Assembly (NCBI GenBank): GCA_963798115.1
Contig: CAWCRT010000003.1
Location: 44,209-108,208 of the forward strand
DNA from: an uncultured Pseudomonadota bacterium
Lineage (GTDB): Bacteria > Pseudomonadota > Alphaproteobacteria > Acetobacterales > Acetobacteraceae
Length of the DNA stretch: 64,000 nt
Reading direction: 5' to 3'
The notes beneath the pieces are model-generated. The model searched no databases. It was not told the DNA's origin and saw only the letters and a list, made by a program, of their open reading frames with translations. Position numbers and translations under genes: made by a program. Within the stretch, counting starts at the first letter, position 1; each line of letters opens with the position of its first letter. Of this stretch, positions 16,181 through 33,027 are shown piece after piece.

Positions 16181-18238
16181 TTACAGATCGAGCACGAGCC
16201 GGGCTTCCTCACCCTCCGCCGGGCTTGCCGGCCGGGCACAGCAGATCAGGCATTCGTTCTCGGCGACCTTCGCGCTCGGGGGCGTCGGGTAGGCAACCTT
16301 GCCCTCGATGATGGTCGTCCGGCAGGTGCCGCAGCTTCCGTTGCGGCAGCTGAATTCCGGCTCCAGCCCTTGCGCCTCGGTCAGTTCCAGCAGCGAGCCC
16401 GATTCCGGCGTCCAAACGACCGTCTTGTCCGCGCGCTTGAACATCACGGGCACAGGCTGGGTCGCGGGCACAGGCCCGGCATCGGCGCCGGACGGACGAT
16501 CGATGCGGCGCTTCAGCGAGGCCGGTCCGAAGGCCTCGGTATGAATGCGATCGTCGGCGATGTTGATGTCGCGCAGGGCGTCATACAGAGCCTGCGTGAA
16601 GCCCGGCGGGCCGCACAGGTAGAAATCATAATCATTGAGCGGCAGCGCCGCTTTGAGCGCCTCGATGTCGATCAGGCCGGTATGGTCGTAATCGGCTTGC
16701 GTGGCCCCGGTAACGTCGGTGAGCCAGCGACGATAGCGGATCGCGCCCTGGCCGGCTTCCGCGAGGCGTGAAATTTCCGCATCGAAGGCGCGTTCGGCCA
16801 CGTTCAGCGCCGCGTAGAAGAACCAGGCCGGCCGGATGCGGCCGTTGCGTGCACCCTCATCCACGAGGCCATGCAGCATAGCCAGCATCGGCGTCACGCC
16901 AATGCCCGCGGCCAGCAGCACGGCGGGGCGCTTCTCGGCCGGGTCGATGACAAATTCGCCCGCCGGCGCGCGCGCCTTGATGGTATCGCCTGCCTGCAGC
17001 CCATGCAGGAATTTCGAGACGACACCCTGGCGCTTCACGCTGATCCGATAGAATTCGTCGGAGGGTGAGGAGGAAAGCGTGTATTGGCGCTGCAGCGGCT
17101 TCGCCGTGTCCGGGAGCGAGACGCTGATCGGCAAATACTGGCCGGACCGCTGGGGGACGATTTTTTCACCGGAGGCAGGCGCCAAATGAAAGGAGCGGAC
17201 CACGCTGCTTTCATCGACCGTCTTCACGATGCGGAAATCCCCCCAGAGATCATTGGCCGGCCGCGTCGGTTGCTCCCACCGCCCCGTCAGCAGAGTGTGC
17301 GGCGACCAGCCATCTTCCATGAAGCGGGTCTGCAACGGCAAGGCCTGGCGCCGGCGGATGATCTTGTGCGGGCGGAAGCGCCACAGCCTGACCGCCCCCT
17401 GGAACTGCTCGATCTCAGCACTCTCGAAAATAATTTTAACCTCGCCGGTCATTTGCAGGACCGTGCCATTGTCGAAATCGATGAAAATCAACCCGGCTTT
17501 GGAATTGAGCAGGAAATTGCCGAAGCTGTTGAAAAAATTATTGCCGGCGAAATCGGGGATGGTCAGCCAGCCGTCATCGTCCAGCCGGGCAAAACCGGGA
17601 TTGCCGCCACGGTGGGAGACGTCGACGCTGCGCTGGCCTTCAGCGTCTGTCTGGTAGGAGGCGACGAAGAAAGTATCGGCCTTTTTCAGCATCTCGACCG
17701 CCTCGGCATCGAACCCGTCGAGCGTGACGGGCGGCGCGGCGGCAGGTGCCGCCGTGTGGTCAAGGAACACGGATTCGCGGCCCTGGATATATTGCGCGCA
17801 ATTGCCGTAGCCATAACGCACCGCGACGCTGAACCCGGCCGAACCAGTGCGCTGGATGCGGCCGTTCATCCGATTGCGACGCCGCGTCGCGAGCTGGATC
17901 CCCAGCAGCGCGATCGCATCGCCGTCTTCCATGCCGGCCTCGGCGGGGTCGGCGGGCTCGCGGGGCACGGCGACATCAAGATGCTTCGCGTCGGGCGCGG
18001 ACAGGAAGCCGGGCGGGGCGGCGCGCAAGGTCGCCCAGACGTCACCCGCCGGGTCCACGGCGCCGAGCACGGCAAAGGGCAATTGCGGATAGAATTCGCG
18101 CTGCTGGTCGGTCAGATAGTCGCGGACCCAGCGGCGCCCGAGATCATCCATCTGCTCGTCCACGCCATAACGGCGCTGCATCTGCAATTCACCTTCGTGC
18201 CAAGGCGCGGAAGCGAGGGTCGGAGCGGCTGAAGTCAT
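16181..18238 (-). CDS. Three-domain flavoprotein: PNPOx-like FMN-binding domain, ferredoxin-NADP reductase-like domain and C-terminal 2Fe-2S ferredoxin
   Basis: 685 aa. C-terminal CRNGSCGTCRT...CLICC plant-type ferredoxin cysteines, a central FNR-like RQYTLSS motif, and an N-terminal pyridoxamine-phosphate-oxidase-like region. Confidence 0.75.
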   Translation of the reverse strand: MTSAAPTLASAPWHEGELQMQRRYGVDEQMDDLGRRWVRDYLTDQQREFYPQLPFAVLGAVDPAGDVWATLRAAPPGFLSAPDAKHLDVAVPREPADPAEAGMEDGDAIALLGIQLATRRRNRMNGRIQRTGSAGFSVAVRYGYGNCAQYIQGRESVFLDHTAAPAAAPPVTLDGFDAEAVEMLKKADTFFVASYQTDAEGQRSVDVSHRGGNPGFARLDDDGWLTIPDFAGNNFFNSFGNFLLNSKAGLIFIDFDNGTVLQMTGEVKIIFESAEIEQFQGAVRLWRFRPHKIIRRRQALPLQTRFMEDGWSPHTLLTGRWEQPTRPANDLWGDFRIVKTVDESSVVRSFHLAPASGEKIVPQRSGQYLPISVSLPDTAKPLQRQYTLSSSPSDEFYRISVKRQGVVSKFLHGLQAGDTIKARAPAGEFVIDPAEKRPAVLLAAGIGVTPMLAMLHGLVDEGARNGRIRPAWFFYAALNVAERAFDAEISRLAEAGQGAIRYRRWLTDVTGATQADYDHTGLIDIEALKAALPLNDYDFYLCGPPGFTQALYDALRDINIADDRIHTEAFGPASLKRRIDRPSGADAGPVPATQPVPVMFKRADKTVVWTPESGSLLELTEAQGLEPEFSCRNGSCGTCRTTIIEGKVAYPTPPSAKVAENECLICCARPASPAEGEEARLVLDL

Positions 18239-18339
18239 AACGGCCTCTTTGGCTGAATTTGTGATCGCAAAAACCGGCGGTCGTCCTACGGGCTACCGCC
18301 TTGTGGATCTTGACGTAACTCTTTCTCTTTCCGGCTAGA

Positions 18340-19276
18340 ATGGCTATTTTCTGCAAATCATTTTTTCAAAAAGTGGAAAAATTGGACAAGATCAGCGCCG
18401 TAAAAGTCTTGATTGCCGCGGTGGATGCCGGGAGTTTGAGTGGTGCTGCCAGCCGGCTGGGCCGCTCGCCCGCGGCGATTACCCGGATGGTCGCGTTTCT
18501 GGAGGAAGAGCTTGGCGTCGTGCTGCTGCATCGCACGACGCGCTCGATCCGGCTCAGCGAAGCCGGCGAGCGTTACGTTGCGGCGTACCGGCGCATTTTG
18601 GCGGAGCTTGAAGAGGCGGACCTCATGGTGGCGGGTGCGCAGGCGGCGCCGCGCGGGTTGTTGACGGTCACCGCGCCGGTGATGTTCGGGATGAGGATCT
18701 TCAGGCCCATCATCGACGCGTTTCTCCGCGCCTATCCCGATGTGCAGATTTAATATCTGCTTCTGGACCGGATGACGCGCCTGACCGATGAAGGCATCGA
18801 CGTGGCGTTGCGCATTGCGCCGCTCCCCGAATTCAAGCCTGATTGCGATCAAGGTCGGCGAAGTCAGGCGCGTCGTGGCGGCATCGCCAAGCTATCTCGC
18901 AAGCCGGCCGCCGATCCGCGTTCCCGAGGACCTTGCCGCCCATGAGTGCATCACCCATGGCGAGCCCTCGCAAAATGAGATCTGGAGCTTTCCGCCGCTG
19001 CCGGGCATGGACAGGTTGCGCAACATCCGCATGTCTTCACGCCTGCATGTCAATCTGATCGAATCGGCGATTGGCACGGCGGCGGATGGTCATGGGGTTA
19101 TTCGCGTCATGTCCTACCAGGTCGAACAGGAAGTCGAGGATGGGCGCCTGGAGATCGTTCTGGCCGATGCAGAGCCTGACCCGGTCCCGGTCCATCTCAT
19201 CACACCGGCGGGACGGCTGGAGAGCGCGAAGGTCCGGGCCTTTGTCGACTTCGCCGTCGCACGCCTAAGGCGCTGA
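18340..19276 (+). pseudogene. LysR family regulator, disrupted (in-frame TAA plus 1-nt insertion); paralog of 9701-10624
   Basis: The N-terminal ORF 18340-18753 ends at TAA 18751-18753, where the paralog has Lys. The reading frame then shifts near 18830-18831 (CCCGAATTC; removing one A restores PLPDSSLIAIKVGEV, matching the paralog's LPDSSMVAVRVGEV). The C-terminal half continues in ORF 18788-19276. Confidence 0.8.
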
Positions 19277-19277
19277 A

Positions 19278-19328
19278 GGACCAAAAGTTTTTGCGCCGCT
19301 TTTTCCAAAAAGCGGCCTCTTCCTTCCT
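19278..19328. repeat. Nested-palindrome intergenic element, partial copy A (linker, GCCGC arm, CT-rich end)
   Basis: GGACCAAAAGTTTTTGC, then GCCGCTTTTTCCAAAAAGCGGC (19295-19316), then CTCTTCCTTCCT. Lies between two convergent stop codons. Confidence 0.85.
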
Positions 19329-19334
19329 GCCTTT

Positions 19335-20603
19335 TTAATCCCCCCCAGCGGCATGCAGCGCCACATGGAAGACGGCGCCGCAAGGCCGGTTGGGGGCAAC
19401 CCAGAGCTTGCCGTCATGGCTGTCGATGATGGAGCGGCAGATGGCGAGGCCCATGCCCGTGCCGGCAGGCTTGTTGGTATAAAGAGGGGTGAAGATACGG
19501 TCGGCGTCTTCGGGGCGGATGCCGGGGCCGTTATCGGCGACGGAAATATGCACGCTGCCGTCGCGGAACGTGGCGTGCACGGAGAGCAGTCGCGGGCCGT
19601 TGATCGCCGCCATGGCGTCGATGGCGTTGGCGATGAGATTGGCGAGGCATTGGTGGAGCTGGGCTGGGCCGCCGATGATGGCGGGCAGATCAGGTGCCAA
19701 GCTGGTCTGGACGCGAATGCGGTGGCGTTGCAGCTCGGCGCGCAGCCCGGCGAGCACGTCGGCAATGAGGCTGTCGGGGGCCAGGGCAACGCGGCTCTGG
19801 GCGTGGCGGCGGAGCGAAGCGCGGACAGTGTCGACCATCTGCCCGGCATGCAGCCCTTGGGCGGCGATCTGGCTGAGGGCCTCGCGGGCCTCGCCGAACT
19901 CAGGGGTGGGGCGGTCGAGCCAGCGCAGCCCGGCCTGGGCCTGCGTGGTGATGCCGGTGAGAGGCTGCTTGATTTCATGGGCGATCAGGGCGGCGACGGC
20001 ATTGCTGGTGAGGAGCCTGGCCTCGTGCTCGCGGCGCTGGGCGATCATGGCGGCGCGCAGCCGCGGGTAGAGGCGCGTGATCTCGCAGAGCAGGAGGATG
20101 AGCATGAGGCTGCCGGCAAAGAGGCCAAAGAGCTGGCCGCCATACCAGCCGAGGGTGAAGCGGGCCGGTATGGGGAAGGAGAGCAGCAGGAGCTGGATCG
20201 CCCAGGCGCACATCACCACCATAAGCCAGAGAGTCAGCACTGAGCGCAGACGGCGCCAGAGCATGGCGAGGGCAAGGATCGTGAGCAGCGCCGCGCCGCC
20301 GGAGAGATATTGCCCAATGGCGGTGAAATGTAGCGGGTCGCGCAGCAGCACGGGGAGGGCGGCGATGAAGCGGGTCGCAAGCAAGGTCGTGAGGCAAGCG
20401 GCGAAGAGGGTGATGAAGCCCGCGATGCTGATCAGCCAAGCAAGGCGGTTTGTGGCCTGGGCTGGCTGACCGGCATCGTCCGGCCATGCGGCGGCGATGA
20501 GGAAAAGCGGGAAGCCGGCCCATCGGAAAAGCGAGAGCCAGGACAGGCTCTGCAGCGAGGCGCCTTGGGGTGCTGGCAGCCAGGGGATCACGATCAGCGC
20601 CAT
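19335..20603 (-). CDS. Membrane sensor histidine kinase with no adjacent response regulator
   Basis: HisKA H-box AHEIKQPLTGI, HATPase motifs (NLIANAIDA, DNGPGI, GTGMGL) and a multi-TM N-terminus. The track start 20771 reads through a repeat copy; ATG 20603 (MALIVIPW) is preferred. Confidence 0.8.
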   Translation of the reverse strand: MALIVIPWLPAPQGASLQSLSWLSLFRWAGFPLFLIAAAWPDDAGQPAQATNRLAWLISIAGFITLFAACLTTLLATRFIAALPVLLRDPLHFTAIGQYLSGGAALLTILALAMLWRRLRSVLTLWLMVVMCAWAIQLLLLSFPIPARFTLGWYGGQLFGLFAGSLMLILLLCEITRLYPRLRAAMIAQRREHEARLLTSNAVAALIAHEIKQPLTGITTQAQAGLRWLDRPTPEFGEAREALSQIAAQGLHAGQMVDTVRASLRRHAQSRVALAPDSLIADVLAGLRAELQRHRIRVQTSLAPDLPAIIGGPAQLHQCLANLIANAIDAMAAINGPRLLSVHATFRDGSVHISVADNGPGIRPEDADRIFTPLYTNKPAGTGMGLAICRSIIDSHDGKLWVAPNRPCGAVFHVALHAAGGD

Positions 20604-20650
20604 GAAGAGGTGGTGCCGCTCCTGCTGCCGAGCAGCCCCAGATTGTTGCC

Positions 20651-20727
20651 GGCCGTGCCTGCGAACGCCCCAGCCCAAAGACAAGAAGTTTTTGCGCCGC
20701 TTTTTCCAAAAAGCGGCCACTTTCTCC
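20651..20727. repeat. Nested-palindrome element, partial copy B (central hairpin remnant, linker, GCCGC arm)
   Basis: GGCCGTGCCTGCGAACGCCCCAGCCC...AAGTTTTTGC, then GCCGCTTTTTCCAAAAAGCGGC (20696-20717). Lies in the divergent region between the kinase and the FAD-subunit gene. Confidence 0.8.
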
Positions 20728-20877
20728 GCGCGCCCTGATCGGAGGGCTGATCTGGCCCGCGCCGATTGCAACGCTCAATCACGGGGCGCAGAAGTTTTTG
20801 CTGCCAGAACGGGTTGCCGGCCGGTCACGGACAGGCGATGTAGACCGCGCCAACAGACGAAACTCGAGTTTTATTGC

Positions 20878-21762
20878 GTGAAACCCGCCTCCTTCGCTTA
20901 CCACCGGCCGCAGACGGTCGCTGACGCGCTAGCTTTGCTGGCCGAACTCGAGGGCGCAAAACTGCTCGCGGGCGGGCAGAGCCTGGGCCCCATGCTCAAT
21001 CTGCGCGTCGCGCGTCCGGAGCATGTGGTCGACCTCAACGACCTGTTGGAGCTGGATTACGTCCGCCGGCAACCGGGCCTGCTCGAGATCGGCAGCCTGA
21101 CGCGGCATCATCGCGTGGCAACAGATAAAGAGGTGGCGGCTTCCTGCCCGATCCTGGCGGCCGCGGCCGCCAGCATCGGCCATTACGCCATTCGCCAGCG
21201 CGGCACGCTTGGCGGCAGCCTCGCCCATGCCGACCCGGCGGCGCAACTGCCGCTGATCGCGACGCTGCTGGATGCGGAAATTCTCATCGGCGGCCGTGCC
21301 GGCACGCGCACCGTGCGGGCGCGGGAGTTTTTTGTCTCGAGCCTGGTCACGTCGGTACAGCCGGACGAGATGATCCTGGCGGTCCGTTTTCCCGCTTTTT
21401 CCGCCGCCCAAGGGTGGGGGATGGAGATTTTTTCCCAGCGCCATGGCGATTTCGCCATCGTGTCCGTGGCCGCGACGATCGCTTGCGCCCCGTCGGGGAA
21501 GGTGGAGACACTGGAGCTGGCGCTGGGCGGTGTCGATGCCACGCCGCTCTCGCTGCATCAGCGGCTGGCGCCGTTTTGCGGTCGCCTGCCGGATGCGGAA
21601 TGGTGTGCGGAGCTCGCCTGTGTCGCCGCCTCGGCCATCGCGCCGGAGGATGATGTACGCATCCCGGCCGCCTATCGCCGCGAACTTGCCGCGACTTTGA
21701 CCCGCCGCGCGCTGGCTTCGGCGGCGGCGCGGGCGCGAGGGGAGGACCAGAAGAATGGCTGA
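20878..21762 (+). CDS. Molybdenum hydroxylase FAD-binding (medium) subunit, CoxM/XdhB-like
   Basis: VKPASFAYHRPQTVADALALL...LLAGGQSLGPMLNLR, a FAD_binding_5 type sequence. In-frame GTG 20878 chosen; the track start 20497 runs through a repeat. Confidence 0.85.
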   Translation: MKPASFAYHRPQTVADALALLAELEGAKLLAGGQSLGPMLNLRVARPEHVVDLNDLLELDYVRRQPGLLEIGSLTRHHRVATDKEVAASCPILAAAAASIGHYAIRQRGTLGGSLAHADPAAQLPLIATLLDAEILIGGRAGTRTVRAREFFVSSLVTSVQPDEMILAVRFPAFSAAQGWGMEIFSQRHGDFAIVSVAATIACAPSGKVETLELALGGVDATPLSLHQRLAPFCGRLPDAEWCAELACVAASAIAPEDDVRIPAAYRRELAATLTRRALASAAARARGEDQKNG

Positions 21763-22240
21763 ACGGATGCTGATCACCCTCTCTGTGAATGGCGTGGAAC
21801 ATGAAGTCGCGGTGCCGCCGCGCCGGCTGCTCTCCGATGTGTTGCGCGACGATCTCGGCCTGACCGGCACGCATGTCGGCTGCGAGCACGGCGTCTGCGG
21901 CGCCTGCACCGTGCTGATCGACGACCGGCCCGCGCGTGCCTGCCTGACCTTCGCGGTGCAGATGGAGGGGCATGAGATCACCACCATCGAGGCGGTGGCG
22001 CGCGATGGCGCCCTGAGCCCGCTGCAGCAGGCGCTGCATGAGGAGCACGGGCTGCAATGCGGCTTCTGCACGCCCGGCATCATCATGACGTTCGAAGCCT
22101 TCCTGCGGGACAATCCCGACCCGAGCGAGGCGGAAATCCGCGACGTGCTCTCCGGCAATATCTGCCGCTGCACCGGCTACCAGAACATTGTGGTCGCCGT
22201 GCGCAAAGCCGCCGCAATGATGCGCGGGGAGGCGAAGTGA
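21755..22240 (+). CDS. Molybdenum hydroxylase 2Fe-2S (small) subunit, CoxS-like
   Basis: CEHGVCGACTV and CGFCTPG...CRCTGY cysteine clusters; 161 aa. Confidence 0.9.
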   Translation: MAERMLITLSVNGVEHEVAVPPRRLLSDVLRDDLGLTGTHVGCEHGVCGACTVLIDDRPARACLTFAVQMEGHEITTIEAVARDGALSPLQQALHEEHGLQCGFCTPGIIMTFEAFLRDNPDPSEAEIRDVLSGNICRCTGYQNIVVAVRKAAAMMRGEAK

Positions 22241-24594
22241 TGCAGGACACGCCTTTCACGCAGATCGGCCGGGCCATGCCGCGCCGGGAGGATCGGCGAT
22301 TTCTGACCGGCGCCGGCCGCTATCTCGACGACCTCGCCTTCCCGCAGGCTTTGCACGCGACCTTCCTGCGCTCGCCGCACGCCCATGCGCGCATTCTGAG
22401 CATCGACAGCACCCAAGCCGCTGCCATGCCGGGAGTCGCCGCCATCGTCACCGGGCACGACATCGCGCAATGGGCGAGCGTGCTGCAGATGGCCCCGCCG
22501 ATCGAAGGGTTGCACCCGACGGCGATGGAACCGTTCCCGACAGCCAAGGTGCGGTTCCAGGGCGATCTGGTCGCCTGCGTTCTCGCCGCTGACCGCTATC
22601 TCGCCGAGGACGCCGCCGAGGCGATCGAGGTCGAGTATGAGGTGCTGCCCGCCGTGGCGGATATGGACAGCGCCCTCGCGCCCGGTGCGCCGCGCGTGGA
22701 CGAGACATTGCCGAGCAACCAGCTCTCCGAGCAGCATTTTGCCGCCGGCGATGTCGCAGCGCGTTTCAAGACCGCGCATGCCGTTGTGAGCGCCTGTTTC
22801 TCGCAGCACCGGCAGACGCAAATGCCGCTGGAGACGCGCGGCTGCGTCGCCGTGTGGGATGAAGGGCGCCAGCATCTGACCTTTCACACCGGCAACCAGG
22901 TGCCGCATCCGCTGCGCACGTCGCTGGCGCGGCGGCTCGGCCTGGTGGAATCCCAGGTCACCGTGATCTGCCCGGATGTCGGCGGCGGGTTCGGCCAGAA
23001 AATCGCGCTCTATCGCGAGGAGCTGGCGATCGCGGCTTTGGCCCGCCACTTCCAGCGCACGGTGCGCTGGCGCGAAGACCGGATGGAAAACCTCCAGGCC
23101 GCCTGCCATCCCCGCGAGCAGCTCTGCGAGACCCGCGCCGCCGTGGCGGAAGATGGCCGTATCCTCGGCCTCGAACTCTCAATGACCGAGGATTTCGGCG
23201 CCTACTGCTTCTTTCCCGGCAATTATATCGCCCGGGTGGTCGCGCTGATCCTCACCGGCCCGTACCGCATCGCCGATTACGCCTACTCGGTGCGCGTGGC
23301 GATGACCAATAAATGCGGCGCCGGGCCGATGCGCGCGCCGATGGCGATGGCGAGCTGGGTAATGGAAGGCACAATGGATGCCGTCGCCCGGCAGCTTGGC
23401 CTGGATCCGCTGGCGGTGCGCCGCGTGAACATGCTGTCGTCGGCCGAGCTGCCTTATACGATGGCGACCGGCGAGGTGCTGGAAGATGTCACCCCGTCCG
23501 AGACGCTGGAGGCGGTTGCCGCCGCCATCGGCTATGAGGATTTCCGCAAACGCCAGGAAGAGGCGCGGGCACAGAACCGCTATCTCGGGCTCGGCCTGTG
23601 CACGGTGGTCGAGCCGACCACCTATGGTTCACGCTTCTACAAGGCCGCCGGCATTCTCGGTTCCGGGCACGAGGCCGCCTGGGTGCGGATCGAGCCGACC
23701 GGCGCGGTGCGTGCCTCGGTCGGGCTGATGGCGACGGGGCAGGGCTATGAGAGTTCACTGCCGCTCGCCGTGGCGGAGGGGCTCGGCGTCGACGTTTCCA
23801 ACGTGGGCCTGGAACTTGGTAATACCGATGTCGCGCCCTACGGCATGGGCAGCCGCGGCGCGCGTGGCGCCACGGCGGGCGGCGGCGCGCTCTATCTCTG
23901 CGCGCGCAAGGCGCAGGAAAAGGTGCTGGCCATCGCCGCGCATATGCTGAAGCTGAACAGCGCCGGCGATCTCAGGCTGCACGAGGGCACGGTGGAACGG
24001 CTGATCGGCGGCGCCTGGACCGGCACCGGCATCGCGCTGGCCGATGTCGCCAGGATCGCCTATCTCGACCCGCTGGCGCTGCCGCCGGGCATGGAGCCGG
24101 GCCTCGACGTCTCGCACGCTTACGACCCGCCGCCGATGACCTATTCCAACTCTAGCCATGCCTGCGAGATCGAACTCGACGTGCAGACCGGCCGGGTCAA
24201 CATTCTGCGCTACGTGGTCGCCGAGGATTGCGGCACCGTGTTGAACCCGGTGGTGGTGCGCGGCCAACAGATCGGCGCGGTGGCCATGGGGCTGAGCGGC
24301 TCGCTGTATGAGCACGTGTTCTATGACAAGACCGGGCAGAATTTGAGCAGCACGCTCGCCGATTATCTGGTGGCGACCGCCTGCGAGTTGCCGAATATCG
24401 AAATCCTGGCGATGCACACGCCGAACAAGCGCACGCCTGCCGGGATCAAAGGCATGGCCGAAGGCGGCGTGATGGGGGCGATCGGCGCGGTGACCAATGC
24501 CGTGAACGACGCGCTGGCGCCGTTCGGCGTCACCGCCACGCATCAGCCTTTGACGCCTCCCACCCTTCGCGGCCTGCTGCGCGGCCGGATCTGA
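22240..24594 (+). CDS. Molybdopterin-binding (large) subunit of a xanthine dehydrogenase/aldehyde oxidase family enzyme
   Basis: MQDTPFTQIGRAMPRREDRRFLTG N-terminus. ATG overlaps the small-subunit stop (GTGATG). 784 aa. Neither the AYXCSFR nor the AYRGAGR CODH loop is seen; TNKCGAGPMRAPMAM is at the equivalent site. Confidence 0.9.
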   Translation: MQDTPFTQIGRAMPRREDRRFLTGAGRYLDDLAFPQALHATFLRSPHAHARILSIDSTQAAAMPGVAAIVTGHDIAQWASVLQMAPPIEGLHPTAMEPFPTAKVRFQGDLVACVLAADRYLAEDAAEAIEVEYEVLPAVADMDSALAPGAPRVDETLPSNQLSEQHFAAGDVAARFKTAHAVVSACFSQHRQTQMPLETRGCVAVWDEGRQHLTFHTGNQVPHPLRTSLARRLGLVESQVTVICPDVGGGFGQKIALYREELAIAALARHFQRTVRWREDRMENLQAACHPREQLCETRAAVAEDGRILGLELSMTEDFGAYCFFPGNYIARVVALILTGPYRIADYAYSVRVAMTNKCGAGPMRAPMAMASWVMEGTMDAVARQLGLDPLAVRRVNMLSSAELPYTMATGEVLEDVTPSETLEAVAAAIGYEDFRKRQEEARAQNRYLGLGLCTVVEPTTYGSRFYKAAGILGSGHEAAWVRIEPTGAVRASVGLMATGQGYESSLPLAVAEGLGVDVSNVGLELGNTDVAPYGMGSRGARGATAGGGALYLCARKAQEKVLAIAAHMLKLNSAGDLRLHEGTVERLIGGAWTGTGIALADVARIAYLDPLALPPGMEPGLDVSHAYDPPPMTYSNSSHACEIELDVQTGRVNILRYVVAEDCGTVLNPVVVRGQQIGAVAMGLSGSLYEHVFYDKTGQNLSSTLADYLVATACELPNIEILAMHTPNKRTPAGIKGMAEGGVMGAIGAVTNAVNDALAPFGVTATHQPLTPPTLRGLLRGRI

Positions 24595-24615
24595 CAGACG
24601 AGGACATCGAGAGAC

Positions 24616-25497
24616 ATGACGGATTTTCCCGCAATTAAGACGGTTGGCTTCATCGGGCTCGGCATCATGGGCCGGAGCATGGCCGGGCATATCATGGCCG
24701 GCGGCTATGCGCTGCACGTCTATAACCGCAGCCGCGCCAAGGCCGACGAGCTGATCGCGCAAGGCGCCGTGTGGCACGACAAGCCCGGCGAGATGGCTGC
24801 GGTGTGCGACGTGGTGATCACCATCGTCGGTTTCCCGCAGGATGTGGAAGACATCTATCTCGCGCCGGACGGGCTCATCGCCCAGGCCACGCCGGGCACG
24901 GTGCTGATCGACATGACCACCTCCAGCCCCTCGCTGGCGCAGCGCATCGCCGCCGTAGGTGCTGCGAAGGGCGTTGCCGTGCTCGATGCCCCGGTTTCCG
25001 GCGGCGATGTCGGCGCGCGCAATGCCAAGCTCTCGATCATGGTCGGCGGTGAGGCGGCGGCGGTCGAGCATGTCCGGCCGGTGCTGACGCGGATGGGCGA
25101 GAATGTGGTGCGCCAGGGCGAAGCCGGGGCCGGGCAGCATACCAAGATGGCGAACCAGATCACCATCGCCTCGAACATGATGGCGGTGTGCGAGAGCCTG
25201 GCCTATGCCAAGAAGGCCGGGCTGGACCCGCGCCAGGTGCTGCAATCGATCGGCGCCGGGGCGGCCGCCAGCTTCGCGCTGAACAATCTCGGGCCGCGCA
25301 TGCTTGGCGGCGATTTCGCGCCGGGTTTCTATGTGCGCCATTTCATCAAGGATATGAGCATCGCTCTGGCCGAGGCTGAGAGCATGGGGCTGCCGCTGCC
25401 GGGCCTCTCCCAGGCCAAGGCACTGTATGAGCGCCTGGCCGCTTCCGGCCATGAGGATGAAGGCACGCAGGCTTTGTTCCGGCTGTACAGCGCATGA
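24616..25497 (+). CDS. NAD(P)-dependent beta-hydroxyacid dehydrogenase (3-hydroxyisobutyrate/tartronate semialdehyde reductase family)
   Basis: VGFIGLGIMGRSMA Rossmann motif and the DAPVSGG motif. Confidence 0.85.
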   Translation: MTDFPAIKTVGFIGLGIMGRSMAGHIMAGGYALHVYNRSRAKADELIAQGAVWHDKPGEMAAVCDVVITIVGFPQDVEDIYLAPDGLIAQATPGTVLIDMTTSSPSLAQRIAAVGAAKGVAVLDAPVSGGDVGARNAKLSIMVGGEAAAVEHVRPVLTRMGENVVRQGEAGAGQHTKMANQITIASNMMAVCESLAYAKKAGLDPRQVLQSIGAGAAASFALNNLGPRMLGGDFAPGFYVRHFIKDMSIALAEAESMGLPLPGLSQAKALYERLAASGHEDEGTQALFRLYSA

Positions 25498-26135: not shown

Positions 26136-26152
26136 AGGAAATTTAAGGTAAG

Positions 26153-26286
26153 TAAGGAAGGGCTTCTTTTTTGGAAAAAAGAAGCAAAAAACTTTTTTTA
26201 AACTGGGCCGTGCTGGTTTCAGCGGCACCGGCTCAGGTTAACAGAAGTTTTTGCGCCGCTTTTTTCAAAAAGCGGCCTCTTTCCTT
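26153..26286. repeat. Nested-palindrome element, full copy C
   Basis: TAAGGAAGG, arm GCTTCTTTTTTGGAAAAAAGAAGC (26162-26185), linker AAAAAACTTT, central hairpin 26205-26234, linker AGAAGTTTTTGC, arm GCCGCTTTTTTCAAAAAGCGGC (26255-26276), CTCTTTCCTT. Confidence 0.9.
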
Positions 26287-26340
26287 GCCCCGCGCTGATT
26301 GTTAGAGTCCCCTTTTGTTCTGGGCCATCTGGGGGACTAA

Positions 26341-29300
26341 TTGGTTGAAATTCGGGCGGTCGTGCGGCCGAAGGTGGGGTTCGCCTCTCACCAGAATTCG
26401 GTGCCCCTCATCAGCGATTTGCAAATTGAAAACGAGAGTGACGAGGCGGTAGGGCCGGCCATTCTCACCCTCTCCGCCAGCCCCGGCTTCATCGCGCCCA
26501 GGACCTGGCGGATCGACCGGCTGACACCGGGTTCTCTGCTTCGCATTGCCGATTGCCTGACCGAGTTCGATGGCGGGATGCTCGCGGCGCTGAACGAAAC
26601 TCTCCGCGCGCAGCTGATTTTTTCGCTCGCGGTTGAGGATCAGGAGATTGCCGCCGCGCGTTTCGAAATCGAGTGTCTGCCCAGGCTGCATTGGGGCGGC
26701 ATGAGCAGCATGGGGCTTCTGGCGTCATTCTGTATGCCGAACGATCCCGCGGTGGACCGCATCCTGAAAATGGCGTCAGAGGCGCTGCGCGCCGCCGGGC
26801 GGGAAGATGCGATCGACGGTTATCGGCGTTCGCCGAAGGAGGTCTGGCTGCTCGTCTCGGCGATCTGGGCCGCCATCGCCAAGCTGAATCTGAGTTACGC
26901 CCTGCCGCCCGCGAGCTTTGAGCTGGAAGGGCAGAAGATACGCGCGCCCGGCAATATCGCGGATGCCAGGATCGCCACCTGCCTCGATAGCAGCCTGCTG
27001 TTTGCGGCCTGTCTGGAGCAGGCGCAGCTGCATCCGGTTATCATTCTGACCAAAGGTCATGCTTTTTGCGGCGTGTGGCTGCGCGACACGTCTTTGCCCA
27101 ACCTCATTGCCGAGGAGGCCGAGACGGTCCGCAAGCATGTGGCGCTGAACGATCTCGTCGTCTTTGAAACCACTTTGGTGAGCAAGGCGCCGCCCGCGAA
27201 ATTCTCCCAGGCGATCGCCGCCGCGGACCGCCAGATCGACGAGGCGCATGATGCGGATTTCGTCGCGGTGCTGGATATAAAGCGCGCGCGGCTGCAACGC
27301 ATCAGGCCGCTCGGCGGTGAAGAGGCGCCTCAGCGCAACGCGCCGGACATGCCGGATGGCGATCATCCGGTTGAATTGCCGCCAGCTGATTTCATCCCGC
27401 CGCCGCCGGAGCGCGCACCCGCCATTCCCGATACGCCGGCGGGACGCCTGGCGCATTGGCAGCGCCGGTTGCTGGATCTGACCACACGGAACCGCCTGCT
27501 GCATGTTCCTGATAACGCCAGGGCGGTGCGGCCTTTGAGCCAGGACATCGCGCGGCTCGAAGAAAAACTGTCATCCGGTCAGAAGATCAAAATTGCGCCG
27601 CTGCCCGAGCTCGGCGTCGGCGGGCGAGATGAGGCGCAATATGAGCAGCAGAGGCTGGAAAGCCTGAAGGAGCAGGTGACCAGGCTGGCGCTGGAGGAGA
27701 AGCACACGCTGCTCTGCGAGACCGAGAAAGCGAAGCTGGACGCGCAGCTGATCGATCTCTACCGCACGGCGCGGAGCGATTTGCAGGAAGGCGGCGCGAA
27801 CACGCTGTTCCTGGCGATGGGCTTCCTGAAATGGAAAAAAACCGCGGACGACGCGCGCAGCTTCCGCGCCCCGCTGGTGCTGCTGCCGGTGCGGCTGGAG
27901 CGCAAGAGCGCGCTGTCCGACGTGGTCATGACCCAGCATGAAGACGAGCCGCGCTTCAATCTGACATTGCTGGAATTGCTGAGGCAGGATTTCAACCTCG
28001 ATATTCCCGGCCTCAGCGGCGCGCTGCCCGTGCTGCCGAATGGCGGCCTCGACCTCAAGGGGATTCTCACTGCCGTCCGCGTGGCGGTCAGGGATATTCC
28101 GGGGTTCGAGGTGACGGAAGCGGTGATGCTCGCCACCTTCTCCTTCGGAAAATATCTGATGTGGAAGGATATGGTGGACCGCTCGGCCCTGTTGGGCGAA
28201 AGCCCGGTCGTGCGGCATCTTATCGAGCGGAGTGAAGAGCGCTTCCGCACAGGCAGTGGCTTTCCCCGGCCTGAGGAGCTGGACCGCAAGATCGACCCGG
28301 CCGAACTCTTCCTGCCGTTGCCGGCTGATTCATCGCAGATCTCCGCGGTCGTGGCGTCCGCCAATGGCTGCGATTTCGTCCTCGATGGCCCGCCCGGGAC
28401 CGGTAAATCCCAGACCATCGCGAACATGATCGCGCATAATCTCGCACTCGGGCGGCGCGTGCTGTTCGTGGCGGAGAAGATGGCGGCCCTGAATGTGGTG
28501 TATCGCCGCCTGGAGGAGAAAGGCCTCGGCGAATTCTGCCTGCAACTACATTCGAACAAGGCGTCCAAAGTCGATGTTCTGAAGCAGCTGGAACGCGCCT
28601 GGGACACGCGCGACGCTTTGTCCGCCGATGCCTGGGCCAGAGAGGCCGGGAAACTGCGCGCGATGCGGGACCGGCTGAATGAATTCGTGACGCTGATGCA
28701 TGGCGTGCAGCCGAATGGCATGACGCTCTATCAGGCGATCGGCTTCGCCGTGCGGCATGAAGCCGTGCACGCGCCGCGCCTTTCCTGGCCGCATGCCGTC
28801 ACGCATGACGAAGCCGCTATGGCGCATCTGCGTGACCTCGTCCGGCGGCTGGCAATCGGCGCCGCCCAGGTGGCGGGGCTGCCGGAATCATTCGCGCCGC
28901 TCAGGCACATGGAATGGTCGAACGGCTGGCAGGACGAGCTGCTCGAGGCCGCGCATTCATTCCCCGCATGCCTGACGACTCTTCTCGAGGCCAGCTTCAG
29001 GCTTGCGGAAGCCGTGAAGTTGCCGGCCGCGAATGACCTGTCCGCCATCGAGGCTTTGTGCGGCTGCGTGCAGGCGATCCTGAACACATATCAACAGGAT
29101 ATGCGTTTTGCCTTTGCCGCGGATGTCGCGAACCTCGCACCTCTGCTGGCACAGGCCGAGCGTTTGCTTGCGGAATATCGCGCGCTGGAGACGCGGCTCT
29201 CCGTGCCGTTTGCTGACATCGCTTCGGTGCCGGTGGCGGCATTGGAGCTGGAGTGGCAGGCGGCATCGCAAAAATTCGCGCTGTTTGCCCGTGGCGCCAA

Positions 29301-31503
29301 GAAGAAGGTGGCGGAAAAACTGGGCTCCCTCGGCCGTGCCGAAGGCTTGCCGGATCCGGCCGAGGATTTGCCGCATTTGCGCCGGCTCCAGGCCTTGAGC
29401 GCGGAACTCTCAAGCCAGGCGCCGCTGCTGCAAGGAATTCCGGGCTGGAACGGCGTGCAAAGCGACATCGCCAGCATGCAAACCGCCCTGGCGAAGGGTG
29501 AGGCGTTGCGCAAGGCGGCTTCCATCGCGATGGAAGATTCGGAAACGCTCATTGAACGGCGCCAGCAGATGCGCGCCTTGACGGTCGATGCCAATGAGCT
29601 GCTGGCCCCAGGCGGGAAGATCGCCCGGGCGCTGACGGAATGCATTGCCGCGTTGGCGCGGATGCAAAGCCTTACGGCGCAGCTGACCAAGCTGGCCGGT
29701 GCGGAGCCGGATACGGGGCTGAATGCGCTGGGATTGCTCGCGGCTTCCATCGTGGCGCATCCCACGCGCTTGAATCCATGGTGCAACTGGCTGCGCGTGG
29801 TCGCCCAGGCGCAAGCCGCCGGGCTGGCGCCGCTCGTGCAGGCCCTGCGCCGCGATCCCGGCATCGACCTTTCCACCTGTTTCGAAGCCGCTTATGCGCG
29901 CTGGTTCGCCGCACGGCTGATCGACGCGGAGCCGCGCATCAAGGAATTCGTGCCTGATGTGCATATGAGCGATATCGGGATGTTCCGTGCGCTGGAGGAC
30001 CGGCTTGCCGATCTGTCGGTGCGCTACATCAAGGCGCGGATCTGCGGCAAAATCCCGGATAAGAATGACGTCGCGAAAAAGGACGGTTACGGGATTCTGA
30101 AACATCAGCTCCAACTGCAGAAGCGCCACAAGCCGATCCGCCAGCTGACCACCGAGATGGGCGAGGCCTTCACCAGCCTGGCGCCATGCATGCTGATGAG
30201 CCCGCTTTCCATCGCGCAATATCTGCCGCCGGACCAGCCGCTCTTCGACCTGGTGATCTTCGATGAAGCCTCGCAGATCACGCCCTGGGACGCGGTCGGC
30301 GCCATGGCCAGGGGGCGCCAGGTTGTGGTGGCGGGCGATCCGCGACAGATGCCGCCAACGAACTTCTTCGGGCGTTCCGTGGATGAGGACGAAGTCAGCG
30401 ACGATGAAAGGGATGCCGAGAGCATCCTGGAAGAATGCCTGGCTGCCGGTGTGCCGCAACACACGCTGGATTGGCATTATCGCAGCCGGCATGAAAGCCT
30501 GATCGCCTTCTCGAACCATCGCTATTACGACAATCGCCTCATGACCTTCCCCGCGCCGGTGACGCGGGCGAGCGCCGTCTCATGGCGGCGCGTCGAAGGG
30601 GTTTATGCCAAGGGCAACGGGCGCACCAACCAGGCCGAAGCGGAGGCGCTGGTGGCGGAGACCGTGGCGCGCCTTACCGATCCGGAACAGCGGCGCAAAA
30701 CGCTTGGCATCATCGTGCTCAATGCGGAGCAGCAGGAGCTGGTCGGGAACCTTCTGGATCGGGAACGCCGGAATAACCCCGAGCTGGAGCCGTTCTTTGA
30801 CGATGCGGCGACGGAGCCGGTATTCGTGAAGAATCTGGAAACCGTGCAGGGTGATGAGCGCGATGTGATCCTGCTCGGCATCGGTTACGGGCCGACCGAA
30901 CTTGGCGCGCCCGTGATGGCGATGAATTTCGGCCCGCTGAATCGCGATGGCGGCTGGCGTCGGTTGAACGTGGCGCTGACCCGGGCGCGGGCGGAGATGG
31001 TGTTGTTCACCTCGTTCGAGGCGTCGATGATCGACCTTAACCGCACCAACGCCCGCGCGGTGCGGGACCTGAAGCATTTCATCGAATTCGCCGAGCGCGG
31101 CTCGCGGGCTCTGGTGGAGGCCGTGCATGGTTCGGTCGGTGGCTTTGACTTACCCTTTGAGGCAGCCGTGGCGGAAGCTCTGACAGCTAAAGGTTGGGAG
31201 GTGGTGACGCAGATCGGCGTATCGCGCTTCCGCATCGATCTCGGCATCGTGCATCCGGACCGCCCCGGCGATTATCTCGTGGGCGTGGAATGCGACGGCG
31301 CGGCATATCATAGCGCCGCCACCGCGCGCGACCGGGATAAGGTGCGTCAGGCGATCCTGGAAAATCTCGGCTGGAAACTGTTGCGCGTGTGGTCCACCGA
31401 CTGGTGGGTGGACAAGGCCGGGGCGACCGAAAAGCTGCATGCGGGTATCAGCAGGCTGTTGGAGGCTGACCGTGCGCGGTTGGAAAAGGCCGCGGCGGAT
31501 TAA
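26341..31503 (+). CDS. Giant DUF4011 / Upf1-like SF1 helicase fused to a C-terminal Vsr/DUF559-like PD-(D/E)xK nuclease, with an N-terminal transglutaminase-like module
   Basis: RRLLDLTTRNRLLH (DUF4011 hallmark), Walker A LDGPPGTGKSQ (28387-28410), motif II VIFDEASQ (about 30256-30276), VVAGDPRQMPP, WHYRSRHESLIAFSN, TVQGDERDVIL, RRLNVALTRAR. C-terminal RFRIDLGIVH...VGVECDGAAYHS...LLRVWSTDWW. TTG start 26341 with GGGGGA upstream. Confidence 0.85.
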   Translation: MVEIRAVVRPKVGFASHQNSVPLISDLQIENESDEAVGPAILTLSASPGFIAPRTWRIDRLTPGSLLRIADCLTEFDGGMLAALNETLRAQLIFSLAVEDQEIAAARFEIECLPRLHWGGMSSMGLLASFCMPNDPAVDRILKMASEALRAAGREDAIDGYRRSPKEVWLLVSAIWAAIAKLNLSYALPPASFELEGQKIRAPGNIADARIATCLDSSLLFAACLEQAQLHPVIILTKGHAFCGVWLRDTSLPNLIAEEAETVRKHVALNDLVVFETTLVSKAPPAKFSQAIAAADRQIDEAHDADFVAVLDIKRARLQRIRPLGGEEAPQRNAPDMPDGDHPVELPPADFIPPPPERAPAIPDTPAGRLAHWQRRLLDLTTRNRLLHVPDNARAVRPLSQDIARLEEKLSSGQKIKIAPLPELGVGGRDEAQYEQQRLESLKEQVTRLALEEKHTLLCETEKAKLDAQLIDLYRTARSDLQEGGANTLFLAMGFLKWKKTADDARSFRAPLVLLPVRLERKSALSDVVMTQHEDEPRFNLTLLELLRQDFNLDIPGLSGALPVLPNGGLDLKGILTAVRVAVRDIPGFEVTEAVMLATFSFGKYLMWKDMVDRSALLGESPVVRHLIERSEERFRTGSGFPRPEELDRKIDPAELFLPLPADSSQISAVVASANGCDFVLDGPPGTGKSQTIANMIAHNLALGRRVLFVAEKMAALNVVYRRLEEKGLGEFCLQLHSNKASKVDVLKQLERAWDTRDALSADAWAREAGKLRAMRDRLNEFVTLMHGVQPNGMTLYQAIGFAVRHEAVHAPRLSWPHAVTHDEAAMAHLRDLVRRLAIGAAQVAGLPESFAPLRHMEWSNGWQDELLEAAHSFPACLTTLLEASFRLAEAVKLPAANDLSAIEALCGCVQAILNTYQQDMRFAFAADVANLAPLLAQAERLLAEYRALETRLSVPFADIASVPVAALELEWQAASQKFALFARGAKKKVAEKLGSLGRAEGLPDPAEDLPHLRRLQALSAELSSQAPLLQGIPGWNGVQSDIASMQTALAKGEALRKAASIAMEDSETLIERRQQMRALTVDANELLAPGGKIARALTECIAALARMQSLTAQLTKLAGAEPDTGLNALGLLAASIVAHPTRLNPWCNWLRVVAQAQAAGLAPLVQALRRDPGIDLSTCFEAAYARWFAARLIDAEPRIKEFVPDVHMSDIGMFRALEDRLADLSVRYIKARICGKIPDKNDVAKKDGYGILKHQLQLQKRHKPIRQLTTEMGEAFTSLAPCMLMSPLSIAQYLPPDQPLFDLVIFDEASQITPWDAVGAMARGRQVVVAGDPRQMPPTNFFGRSVDEDEVSDDERDAESILEECLAAGVPQHTLDWHYRSRHESLIAFSNHRYYDNRLMTFPAPVTRASAVSWRRVEGVYAKGNGRTNQAEAEALVAETVARLTDPEQRRKTLGIIVLNAEQQELVGNLLDRERRNNPELEPFFDDAATEPVFVKNLETVQGDERDVILLGIGYGPTELGAPVMAMNFGPLNRDGGWRRLNVALTRARAEMVLFTSFEASMIDLNRTNARAVRDLKHFIEFAERGSRALVEAVHGSVGGFDLPFEAAVAEALTAKGWEVVTQIGVSRFRIDLGIVHPDRPGDYLVGVECDGAAYHSAATARDRDKVRQAILENLGWKLLRVWSTDWWVDKAGATEKLHAGISRLLEADRARLEKAAAD

Positions 31504-31641
31504 GGAAGGAAGGGAAGGTTTCTTTTTTGAAAAAAAAGCAAAAAACTTTCTTAAACTTTGGGCCCGTGGCGTTTCAACGCCGCGGGCCCAATTTCAGAGA
31601 AGTTTTTGCGCCGCTTTTTTCAAAAAGCGGCCACTTACTTA
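31501..31641. repeat. Nested-palindrome element, full copy D (left arm degenerate)
   Basis: Begins with the helicase TAA stop (TAAGGAAGGAAGGGAAGG) and ends at the atoE-like stop (CCACTTACTTA). Central hairpin GGGCCCGTGGCGTTTCAACGCCGCGGGCCC at 31560-31589. Confidence 0.9.
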
Positions 31642-33027
31642 AGGAACCAACACCAAAGCCGCCGCATAGATGGCGAGCGACACAATGAACGTGACGGCCG
31701 TGAAGGCCATCACGCGCTGCAGGCGGATGCCGGCCATTGCCACCATCGGCACGGCCCAGAAGGGCTGGAGCATGTTCGAGACATTCTCGGCCATGGCGAC
31801 GCCCATTGCCGTGCGTGCGGTCGAGGCATGGAGGGCCAGCGCGGCCGGCAGCACGAACGGCCCCTGAATGGCCCAGTGACCACCGGCGCTCGGCACCAGC
31901 AGCGTGATGATCAGCGAGCTGATGAAACTCCACAAAGGCAGCGTCGTCTGGCTGGCAATGGTGACAAATCCCTTGGCGATCACCGCGGCCAGGCCGGTGC
32001 CGGCCATGATGCCCATGATGCCGCCATACATCGGGTATTGCAGCAGCATGGAACCGGTCTGTTTCGCCGCTTCGCGAATGGCGTTGGCATAGGCGATGGG
32101 CGAGCCCTGAAGAACCAGGCCGATCAGCAGGAAGATCAGAATCGTCGTGTTGATATCGAGCGAGAAGCCTTTCTCATACCAGGTCATAGCCAGCAGCCCG
32201 CCGCCGAACAGCAGTAGCAGCACGACACCGATGAAGGACCGCTCCATGCGCGCCGCGAGCGAGGTTGCGCCGGCCGCGCGGGCGTGCGGGTCGATGCTGG
32301 TCGTTGCGGCAGGTTCGGAGAAGGCCTGGATATCGCCTTCCTTGGGATGCATCAGGATGAAGATCACGGCCATGACCAGGACGACCAGAACGGTCGGCAC
32401 GAGCACGAAGGGCGCGAAGATCGTCTCGCTCAACGGGATCACATGTCCCGTGGCTTTTTCGACGAAGTTCAGGGCGTTGCCGTGCGAGGCCTGGGAGAGA
32501 GCGATGGAGCTGGAGAGGCCGTTATTGCAGATCGACCAGGCCGAATAGCTTCCGGCCACCAGCCAAGCGAAATCCACGCGCGTCTGCCGGGCGATTTCAC
32601 GTGCCAGAAATGCGGCAACCACCAGGCCCAGCCCCCAATTCAACCAGGCGGCGATGGCGACGACCGGAAACAGCAACACCACCGCTTGCGCCGGCGAGCG
32701 CACATTTTCGGCGAGGCGGCGCAGCCCTCTGCGTACGACCGGCGCATCCGCGACCGCGAAACCGGTCGCGAGAATCAGGATCATTTGCAGCGCAAAGGCG
32801 AGGATCTTGAACGCGCCACCATACCACGCGTTCAGCACGTTCGGCACCGAGGCATGCGGCGCAAACGCAAAGGCGAGAATCGCCACCAGCGCCGTGAGCC
32901 CGATCGACAGGACAAACGGATCCGGCAGGACTTGCTCGAACACATAGACAAGTTTGGCGATCAGCCCGCTTTGGCCCTGGGCGGGCGGCAAGCCCGCGAC
33001 CGTGGCGGTATCTTTACTCGAACTCAT
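31639..33027 (-). CDS. Short-chain fatty acid transporter (AtoE family)
   Basis: 462 aa polytopic protein. The N-terminus ...LIAKLVYVFEQVLPDPFVLSIGLT is typical of the AtoE family. Confidence 0.85.
   Translation of the reverse strand: MSSSKDTATVAGLPPAQGQSGLIAKLVYVFEQVLPDPFVLSIGLTALVAILAFAFAPHASVPNVLNAWYGGAFKILAFALQMILILATGFAVADAPVVRRGLRRLAENVRSPAQAVVLLFPVVAIAAWLNWGLGLVVAAFLAREIARQTRVDFAWLVAGSYSAWSICNNGLSSSIALSQASHGNALNFVEKATGHVIPLSETIFAPFVLVPTVLVVLVMAVIFILMHPKEGDIQAFSEPAATTSIDPHARAAGATSLAARMERSFIGVVLLLLFGGGLLAMTWYEKGFSLDINTTILIFLLIGLVLQGSPIAYANAIREAAKQTGSMLLQYPMYGGIMGIMAGTGLAAVIAKGFVTIASQTTLPLWSFISSLIITLLVPSAGGHWAIQGPFVLPAALALHASTARTAMGVAMAENVSNMLQPFWAVPMVAMAGIRLQRVMAFTAVTFIVSLAIYAAALVLVP

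Follow-up and report, generated by a model that had tools for sequence, protein, structure and literature searches.

The gene analysed here occupies positions 26341 to 31503 (+ strand) of a 64,000-nt stretch of contig CAWCRT010000003.1 (assembly GCA_963798115.1) from an uncultured member of the Acetobacteraceae; this whole stretch is referred to below as the window. The gene probably encodes an anti-phage defence protein of the ProA family (ProA in NCBIfam, candidate PDC-S37 in PADLOC), a sister of Hhe. The family was already catalogued, and as a defence gene this one is rather ordinary, being present in some close relatives and missing from others. The product is a single chain comprising a beta-sandwich, a probable transglutaminase-like domain, DUF4011, a superfamily 1B (SF1B) helicase of the Upf1 type that contains a large helical insertion, and a Vsr-like PD-(D/E)xK nuclease.

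Family assignment and domain architecture

Two equivalogs of NCBIfam release 20 were considered, namely NF058533.1, named 'anti-phage protein ProA' (cut-off of 1500 bits), and NF042953.1, which represents Hhe (cut-off of 2000 bits). The ProA profile was matched with 1988 bits, residues (aa) 14-1718 being aligned to profile positions 2-1718 of 1903, while the Hhe profile reached 803 bits, in two separate stretches. PADLOC, whose use had been proposed in an earlier reading of the DNA made without database searches (the sequence-only reading), returned the candidate PDC-S37 as its top model (1148 bits; aa 369-1714 on profile positions 9-1349 of 1550), ahead of its Hhe model with 586 bits, about half that score. 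Both databases thus agreed with the earlier claim that the gene belongs to a defence-associated family.

The sequence-only reading had gone further and tentatively assigned the gene to Hhe (HheA, Gao_Hhe). Such an identity is favoured by the common layout of DUF4011, SF1 helicase and Vsr-like nuclease in one polypeptide and by the strong Hhe scores in the C-terminal third (for aa 1301-1720, 468 bits in NCBIfam and 363 bits in PADLOC); in both, a very long stretch is also inserted between Walker A and motif II. However, when the protein was cut into four segments and each was scored against the NCBIfam and PADLOC profiles, all four scored best, and far higher than against Hhe, with ProA or PDC-S37. 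Matches to the Hhe profiles are found in the DUF4011 part, around Walker A and in the C-terminal part, the DUF4011 part being common to the Hhe and PDC-S37 profiles, whereas the N-terminal 340 aa, with the beta-sandwich and the transglutaminase-like module, and most of the helical insertion, which is largely unrelated, remain unmatched. In contrast, aa 1-340 alone gave 352 bits to ProA (profile positions 2-321) and matched no other NCBIfam or PADLOC family. It is therefore very improbable that the gene is Hhe proper, and that name did not survive the comparison of the profile scores with their cut-offs.

The gene and its domains, with the evidence for each in brackets, are the following:

26341-31503, + strand: ProA-family coding sequence, 1720 aa, TTG start, stop codon included (ORF (open reading frame) list and translation)
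26341-26685, + strand: N-terminal all-beta sandwich-like domain, aa 1-115 (AlphaFold2 strands at aa 1-112, Foldseek, conservation across the family)
26686-27330, + strand: probable transglutaminase-like (papain-fold) core, aa 116-330 (conserved triad, model, weak Pfam matches, Foldseek)
26980-26982, 27058-27060 and 27166-27168, + strand: putative triad Cys214, His240 and Glu276, respectively
27331-27456, + strand: Pro-rich linker, aa 331-372 (modelled without regular secondary structure, lowest conservation, highest dN/dS, the ratio of nonsynonymous to synonymous substitution rates)
27466-28260, + strand: DUF4011 (Pfam aa 376-547) with an extension to about aa 640 (PF13195, E 2e-42, full profile length)
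28288-28560, + strand: first part of RecA-like domain 1 (RecA1), with Walker A (Pfam AAA_30/AAA_19 at aa 665-722)
28561-30180, + strand: all-helical insertion of about 540 aa within RecA1, aa ~741-1280 (AlphaFold2, helices only)
30181-31140, + strand: rest of the SF1B helicase core, from motif II onwards (Pfam AAA_11 and AAA_12, motifs, Foldseek, PDB hits)
31156-31443, + strand: MTES_1575/Vsr-like nuclease, aa 1606-1701, with D1633, E1650, D1652 and H1657 (PF18741, E 3e-35)

All the motifs quoted in the sequence-only reading were recovered within this ORF at the same positions. The DUF4011 hallmark RRLLDLTTRNRLLH begins at aa 375, and it is followed by Walker A (GPPGTGKS, aa 683-690, nt 28387-28410, with K689), motif II (DEAS, aa 1308, nt 30262-30273) and the further helicase motifs GDPRQMPP (aa 1332), TVQGDERD (aa 1501) and RRLNVALTRAR (aa 1540); VECDG lies at aa 1649, and RVWSTDWW close to the C-terminus. 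Pfam placed AAA_11 at aa 1301-1340 and AAA_12 at aa 1360-1556, and MTES_1575 was matched with 120.6 bits against a gathering cut-off of 38.2, besides weak matches to DUF559 and Vsr. Across 52 homologues, the helicase motifs and the nuclease residues D1633, E1650 and D1652 were invariant, and H1657 was conserved in at least 90%. Walker A, motifs II, III, V and VI, and the RecA1/RecA2 fold were all found, as is characteristic of SF1B Upf1-like helicases. Pfam, the motifs and Foldseek hence bear out the proposed fusion of DUF4011, an Upf1/Dna2-type SF1B helicase and a Vsr-like nuclease.

Structural models were obtained with AlphaFold2 for aa 1-640 (alignment of 66 sequences; mean predicted local distance difference test score (pLDDT) of 85.6, and about 96 for aa 1-320) and for aa 631-1720 (pLDDT of 75). 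The interval of about 600 aa for which a structure prediction had been suggested turned out to be the helical insertion within RecA1, mostly with pLDDT of 85-95, and it matched no solved structure in Foldseek or in the PDB sequence search. The distance between Walker A and motif II, which the sequence-only reading had regarded as unusual, is real (618 residues), but it is equally long in the ProA profile, the insertion is present in the PDC-S37 profile too, and the gap is still longer in the Hhe profile, where the Walker A region lies at about 327-475 and motif II at about 1282. Judging by these profiles, the long split of RecA1 is a trait of the whole ProA/Hhe group. Moreover, no solved structure of the Hhe or ProA type turned up in Foldseek or the PDB sequence search. 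The helicase core matched Aquarius, Dna2, Senataxin/Sen1, Upf1, IGHMBP2 and nsp13 in Foldseek, and the search of PDB sequences with the full protein recovered the generic SF1B core only (Sen1, IGHMBP2 and Dna2). The protein shares the fold and the motifs of that core with Upf1, Sen1/Senataxin, IGHMBP2, Aquarius and Dna2, and with Dna2 also the presence of a helicase and a PD-(D/E)xK-type nuclease in one chain. However, the match covers about 300-470 residues at 15-20% identity, the accessory domains of the eukaryotic SF1B helicases are unrelated, and the nuclease of the window protein is C-terminal and of the Vsr type.

With the ProA/PDC-S37 models the protein shares the N-terminal module, DUF4011, the split SF1B helicase with its helical insertion and the MTES_1575 nuclease. 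It differs from the ProA profile in lacking the C-terminal DUF3320/winged-helix region, and in its host, an Acidocella-like lineage. Specifically, DUF3320 (PF11784), for which a search had been proposed, was absent from the protein by Pfam, and the ProA profile positions from about 1719 to 1903 were unmatched. Among the closest 120 homologues, most had about 1940-1960 aa with DUF3320, while roughly a quarter had about 1720-1800 aa without it. None of the eleven homologues nearest to the window protein (P0001-P0011, with 68-86% identity) departs from the short form, which other lineages have as well, and on these sequences it appears to be a common variant. An ORF of 219 aa on the + strand (31558-32217) was considered as a split-off DUF3320 tail and discarded as spurious, for it is antisense to a transporter gene (31639-33027, - strand) and holds no such domain. 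Truncation of the gene by a downstream repeat copy was also rejected, as orthologues without that copy end in the same C-terminus.

The N-terminal, probably transglutaminase-like module

The sequence-only reading had described an extra N-terminal module. Such a module is present, but it is not extra: as far as sequence comparison can tell, it is a hallmark of the ProA family that separates ProA from Hhe, and a transglutaminase-like domain at this place has been known in related giant proteins since 2013 (PMC3710099). The search with the N-terminal module returned 3597 cluster representatives, 766 of them at E <= 1e-30. Among the 150 listed, the module starts within the first ~175 residues of proteins of about 1700-2400 aa, shorter ones being mostly fragments. 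In an alignment of the query with 141 diverse cluster representatives, Cys214 and His240 were found in all 142 sequences, and position 276 was occupied by Glu in 137 and by Asp in the other 5. In the AlphaFold2 model, these residues belong to an alpha/beta domain (aa 120-320) in which Cys214 opens a helix (214-227), His240 opens a strand (240-246) and Glu276 follows a strand (272-275). The N-terminal domain is likely transglutaminase-like, and its catalytic competence is plausible given the conserved triad.

Pfam gave no match on the N-terminus of the window protein itself. In a scan of 16 family members, all matches were below threshold, DUF553 ('Transglutaminase-like') appearing in 12 of them (best E of 0.0035) and Transglut_core in 3 (best E of 0.019). 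The top PDB matches in Foldseek were animal transglutaminases (TG2, factor XIII and TG3), with E of about 1e-3 over ~117 columns that perhaps cover only the beta-sandwich, and other matches of about 117 columns were to CARDB and to carbohydrate-binding-type sandwiches. A PDB profile search with the transglutaminase-like core returned nothing.

Giant proteins joining HEPN, a transglutaminase-like peptidase, an SF-I helicase, a Vsr-type restriction endonuclease of the MTES_1575 kind and winged helices overlapping DUF3320 were described by Anantharaman et al. in 2013 and predicted to be modification-independent, restriction-like defences (PMC3710099). The window protein resembles them in its transglutaminase-like domain, SF-I helicase and MTES_1575-type Vsr nuclease. 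However, those proteins have HEPN and two domains of the winged helix-turn-helix (wHTH) type, whereas the window protein has no HEPN by Pfam, a beta-sandwich at its N-terminus and no wHTH/DUF3320 tail. Furthermore, a metagenomic family member of 2336 aa (P0291) carries an additional N-terminal RNase_T domain (DEDD exonuclease) and C-terminal DUF3320 and WYL domains, so that the architecture accretes nuclease and sensor domains, like the HEPN fusions described in 2013 (PMC3710099).

Occupied and empty loci, selection and distribution

On an evolutionary scale, the gene is mobile, and it is accessory: relatives of equal closeness differ in whether they have it, it lies at different loci within the genus, and full-length homologues occur on plasmids. 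The orthologue with 86% identity (contig L001) was found at the same site, between the genes for CoxG and a short-chain fatty-acid transporter. In Acidocella sp. SMAG_U15517 (L009), these two genes are 97 bp apart, with no ProA and with one partial copy of a repeat between them that resembles the downstream copy (D) of the window. The identity of the flanking proteins to those of the window was 79-91% for L009 and 81-94% for L001. The relatives with 73-77% identity carried ProA at three other loci, and in one of these genomes a different contig held the CoxG operon, with no ProA there. Two copies of an intergenic repeat flank the gene in the window:

26150-26281, + strand: upstream copy 'C' of an imperfectly palindromic, three-hairpin intergenic repeat of about 130 nt
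31506-31636, + strand: downstream copy 'D', in the same orientation, starting just past the stop codon of the gene and reaching to where the convergently oriented transporter gene has its stop

When the empty site (L009, 694-792) was aligned with the occupied one (window, 26136-31638), the boundaries of the indel fell inside the repeat copies, the difference consisting of repeat C, ProA and part of repeat D. This may be explained by a deletion between two direct repeat copies, or by an insertion through recombination at a resident copy. Loss in L009 is weakly preferred, as the three genomes are nearly equidistant but the flanking genes bring L001 and L009 slightly nearer together. The repeats may be the means by which the ProA gene is gained or lost.

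In the 64-kb window, where chance alone would give none, there are at least ten copies of the repeat core AGTTTTTGCGCCGCTTTTTTCAAAAAGCGGCC, at positions 19286, 20687, 26246, 31601, 36657, 37910, 43737 (- strand), 49677, 52317 (- strand) and 59193. Copies were also present in the related Acidocella-like contigs L001, L002/L003 and L009, the downstream copy in L001 being inverted with respect to the window. The repeat matched no Rfam family, and the search of the flanks gave only chance matches to miRNA and snoRNA families, far below threshold. It looks like a lineage-specific element of the repetitive extragenic palindromic or miniature inverted-repeat transposable element (REP/MITE) type, and it is a common intergenic element, not the dedicated border of a cassette. 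The bracketing of the gene by two copies, to which the sequence-only reading had drawn attention, is real, and the occupied and empty forms differ exactly there; on its own, however, it is weak evidence, because the element occurs throughout the window.

All domains of the protein are under purifying selection, and the catalytic motifs are intact. Compared with the 86% identical orthologue, dN/dS was 0.13 overall and ranged from 0.03 to 0.23 across the folded domains. The lowest values were those of the helicase core and the nuclease (0.03-0.09; 0.03-0.04 for the Walker A part and about 0.05 for the nuclease), followed by the N-terminal domains, DUF4011 and the insertion (0.13-0.17), with a peak of 0.29-0.58 in the 42-residue linker.

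The closest named homologues belonged to Acidocella (71-75% identity), while homologues of 52-59% identity were found in Pseudomonas, Sphingomonas, Klebsiella plasmids and others, and full-length relatives of 55-59% identity in Pseudomonas, Sphingomonas, Undibacterium, Iodobacter and others. A tblastn search against plasmids gave 555 records with a match, 71 of them full length, the carriers being IncFIB plasmids of Klebsiella, Raoultella and Enterobacter, and replicons of Paracoccus, Novosphingobium and Comamonas; one plasmid copy was flanked by the insertion sequences (IS) IS110 and IS5. An origin from phages was rejected, with a single full-length match in phage genomes (31% identity, an unannotated faecal contig). 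This frequency on large plasmids, together with the near absence from phage genomes, could indicate that the main targets of the protein are plasmids and other mobile DNA, or that it is a weapon of mobile elements competing with one another, the phage label being incidental; a modification-independent helicase-nuclease sensing DNA structures could act on the entry of conjugative single-stranded DNA. However, the related Hhe was validated against phages, and the copy in the window is chromosomal, with no mobile-element genes nearby, which makes this alternative distinctly unlikely compared with anti-phage defence.

Two further observations concern the homologues. In the Klebsiella pneumoniae records CP094888.1 and CP095469.1 (99447-106980), the ProA homologue is split in two by an IS21-family element (istA/istB), and these plasmid copies are cases of natural insertional inactivation. 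On the Pseudomonas chlororaphis chromosome (L089/L090, 4883-15832), the ProA homologue divergently adjoins sbcC-sbcD, an adjacency that possibly reflects a functional link to the processing of DNA ends and hairpins, or a coincidence.

Regarding the setting of the gene in the window, the upstream neighbours encode the large subunit of a molybdenum (Mo) hydroxylase, a 3-hydroxyisobutyrate-dehydrogenase-like protein and CoxG, and those downstream, on the opposite strand, the short-chain fatty-acid transporter (31639-33027, - strand) and a thiolase. The gene stands alone among them and is unrelated to either group, as had been proposed. Its TTG start at 26341 is supported because the orthologues in L001 (GTG) and in L002 and L005 (ATG; 75-77% identity) begin at the same codon. 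It is preceded, at a distance of a few bases, by a G-rich stretch that resembles a Shine-Dalgarno sequence, and a scan for promoters and terminators gave nothing over the shuffled expectation. The weak TTG codon may keep the expression of a potentially toxic protein low. For the large subunit of the Mo-hydroxylase (22057-24594, + strand), the longest ORF has 845 aa, the L001 orthologue was called at 784 aa and the similarity extends over about 830 residues; its true start is probably downstream of 22057. Moreover, L001 has, some kb downstream of ProA (18226-25175), a cluster of the aryl-polyene or lipid-export type, with acyl-carrier, AMP-ligase, ApeI-like, lipid A acyltransferase-like, LolA-like and MMPL genes, and in the 77% identical relative L005 (1-9488) this cluster directly adjoins ProA. 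The same cluster was placed at about 34.4-45 kb of the window by synteny with L001 and L005 only. Since its distance to ProA differs between L001 and L005, a local rearrangement around the gene is indicated.

Defence, housekeeping and a possible mechanism

An association of the protein with defence is suggested by the origin of the PDC models, by the relatives bearing RNase_T, WYL or HEPN domains, and by the validated sister Hhe. The PDC models are 145 candidates derived from genes that lie within BREX, DISARM, type I restriction-modification or Hma systems, and the preprint defining them does not mention S37 by name (10.1101/2024.01.29.577857). Several points weigh against a defence role. The anti-phage label comes from the name of a curated NCBI model and from a PADLOC candidate, and a literature search did not turn up the paper from which the names ProA or PDC-S37 derive, the DefensePredictor preprint being negative as well. 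No defence island was found around the gene, nor was any integrase, transposase or tRNA beside it, with no tRNA in the whole window, and three distant homologues, including those of Pseudomonas and Sphingomonas, were solitary among ordinary genes, with no defence island. The divergence from the L001 orthologue equals that of the flanking housekeeping genes, so the gene has been stably inherited for some time. The transglutaminase assignment leans on the sub-threshold Pfam matches and on Foldseek matches possibly limited to the beta-sandwich. Finally, P. aeruginosa has a large DUF4011 gene that belongs to its core genome (PMC10250203).

The last of these points also speaks for the main rival explanation, according to which the protein is a housekeeping or stress enzyme for DNA repair or fork processing, a bacterial helicase-nuclease like Dna2 or Upf1 with no immune role. 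Its solitary position among metabolic genes in the window, in Pseudomonas and in Sphingomonas, the adjacency to sbcCD in P. chlororaphis, the strong purifying selection with a divergence in step with the flanks, and the structural resemblance to Dna2 and Sen1 are all in line with such a function. However, a housekeeping gene is at odds with presence and absence at the same site between equally related genomes and with a locus that varies within one genus. The same applies to the carriage by conjugative or mobilizable plasmids between IS elements, with some copies interrupted by IS21, and to the fusions with RNase_T, WYL or HEPN, which are typical of conflict systems; moreover, the curated databases file the family under defence. 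Overall, the housekeeping explanation is considered unlikely, and anti-phage defence by a ProA-family protein is retained as the probable function.

Hhe is reportedly the single-gene system of Gao et al. 2020. It protects against lambda, T3, T7 and PhiV-1, and this protection is lost in a nuclease-site mutant (10.1101/2022.06.16.496414); it is apparently triggered by the activity of the DNA-metabolism genes of T7, and not by one protein (10.1101/2024.10.10.617714). By analogy with Hhe and from the logic of its domains, ProA would act alone and would need no DNA modification. The SF1B helicase would load on DNA structures of invading or replicating foreign DNA and translocate 5'->3', and the C-terminal Vsr-type nuclease would then cut that DNA, so that the replication of phages or other invading DNA would stop. 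The transglutaminase-like domain, if active, could switch the system by proteolysis or act as its sensor, or it could be a second effector directed at proteins.

A bolder reading is that the Cys-His-Glu centre is both active and essential, which would make of ProA a three-enzyme immune machine, and that the repeats of about 130 nt are recombination handles by which defence genes are inserted into, or deleted from, ordinary sites of the chromosome outside the classical defence islands. Taken as a whole, this combination is rather unlikely. If it were true, the N-terminal domain, as a peptidase or a cross-linking enzyme, would either detect a protein of the phage or unleash or back up the helicase-nuclease. 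As the triad is kept in every aligned sequence, it offers a clear and cheap mutational hypothesis.

The practical value of these results lies in a corrected annotation, which the current NCBI models would assign automatically: ProA/PDC-S37 instead of Hhe. Furthermore, the pair of occupied and empty sites, bounded by a lineage-specific repeat, shows the turnover of 'solo' defence genes outside islands in an acidophile lineage without phage-host models.

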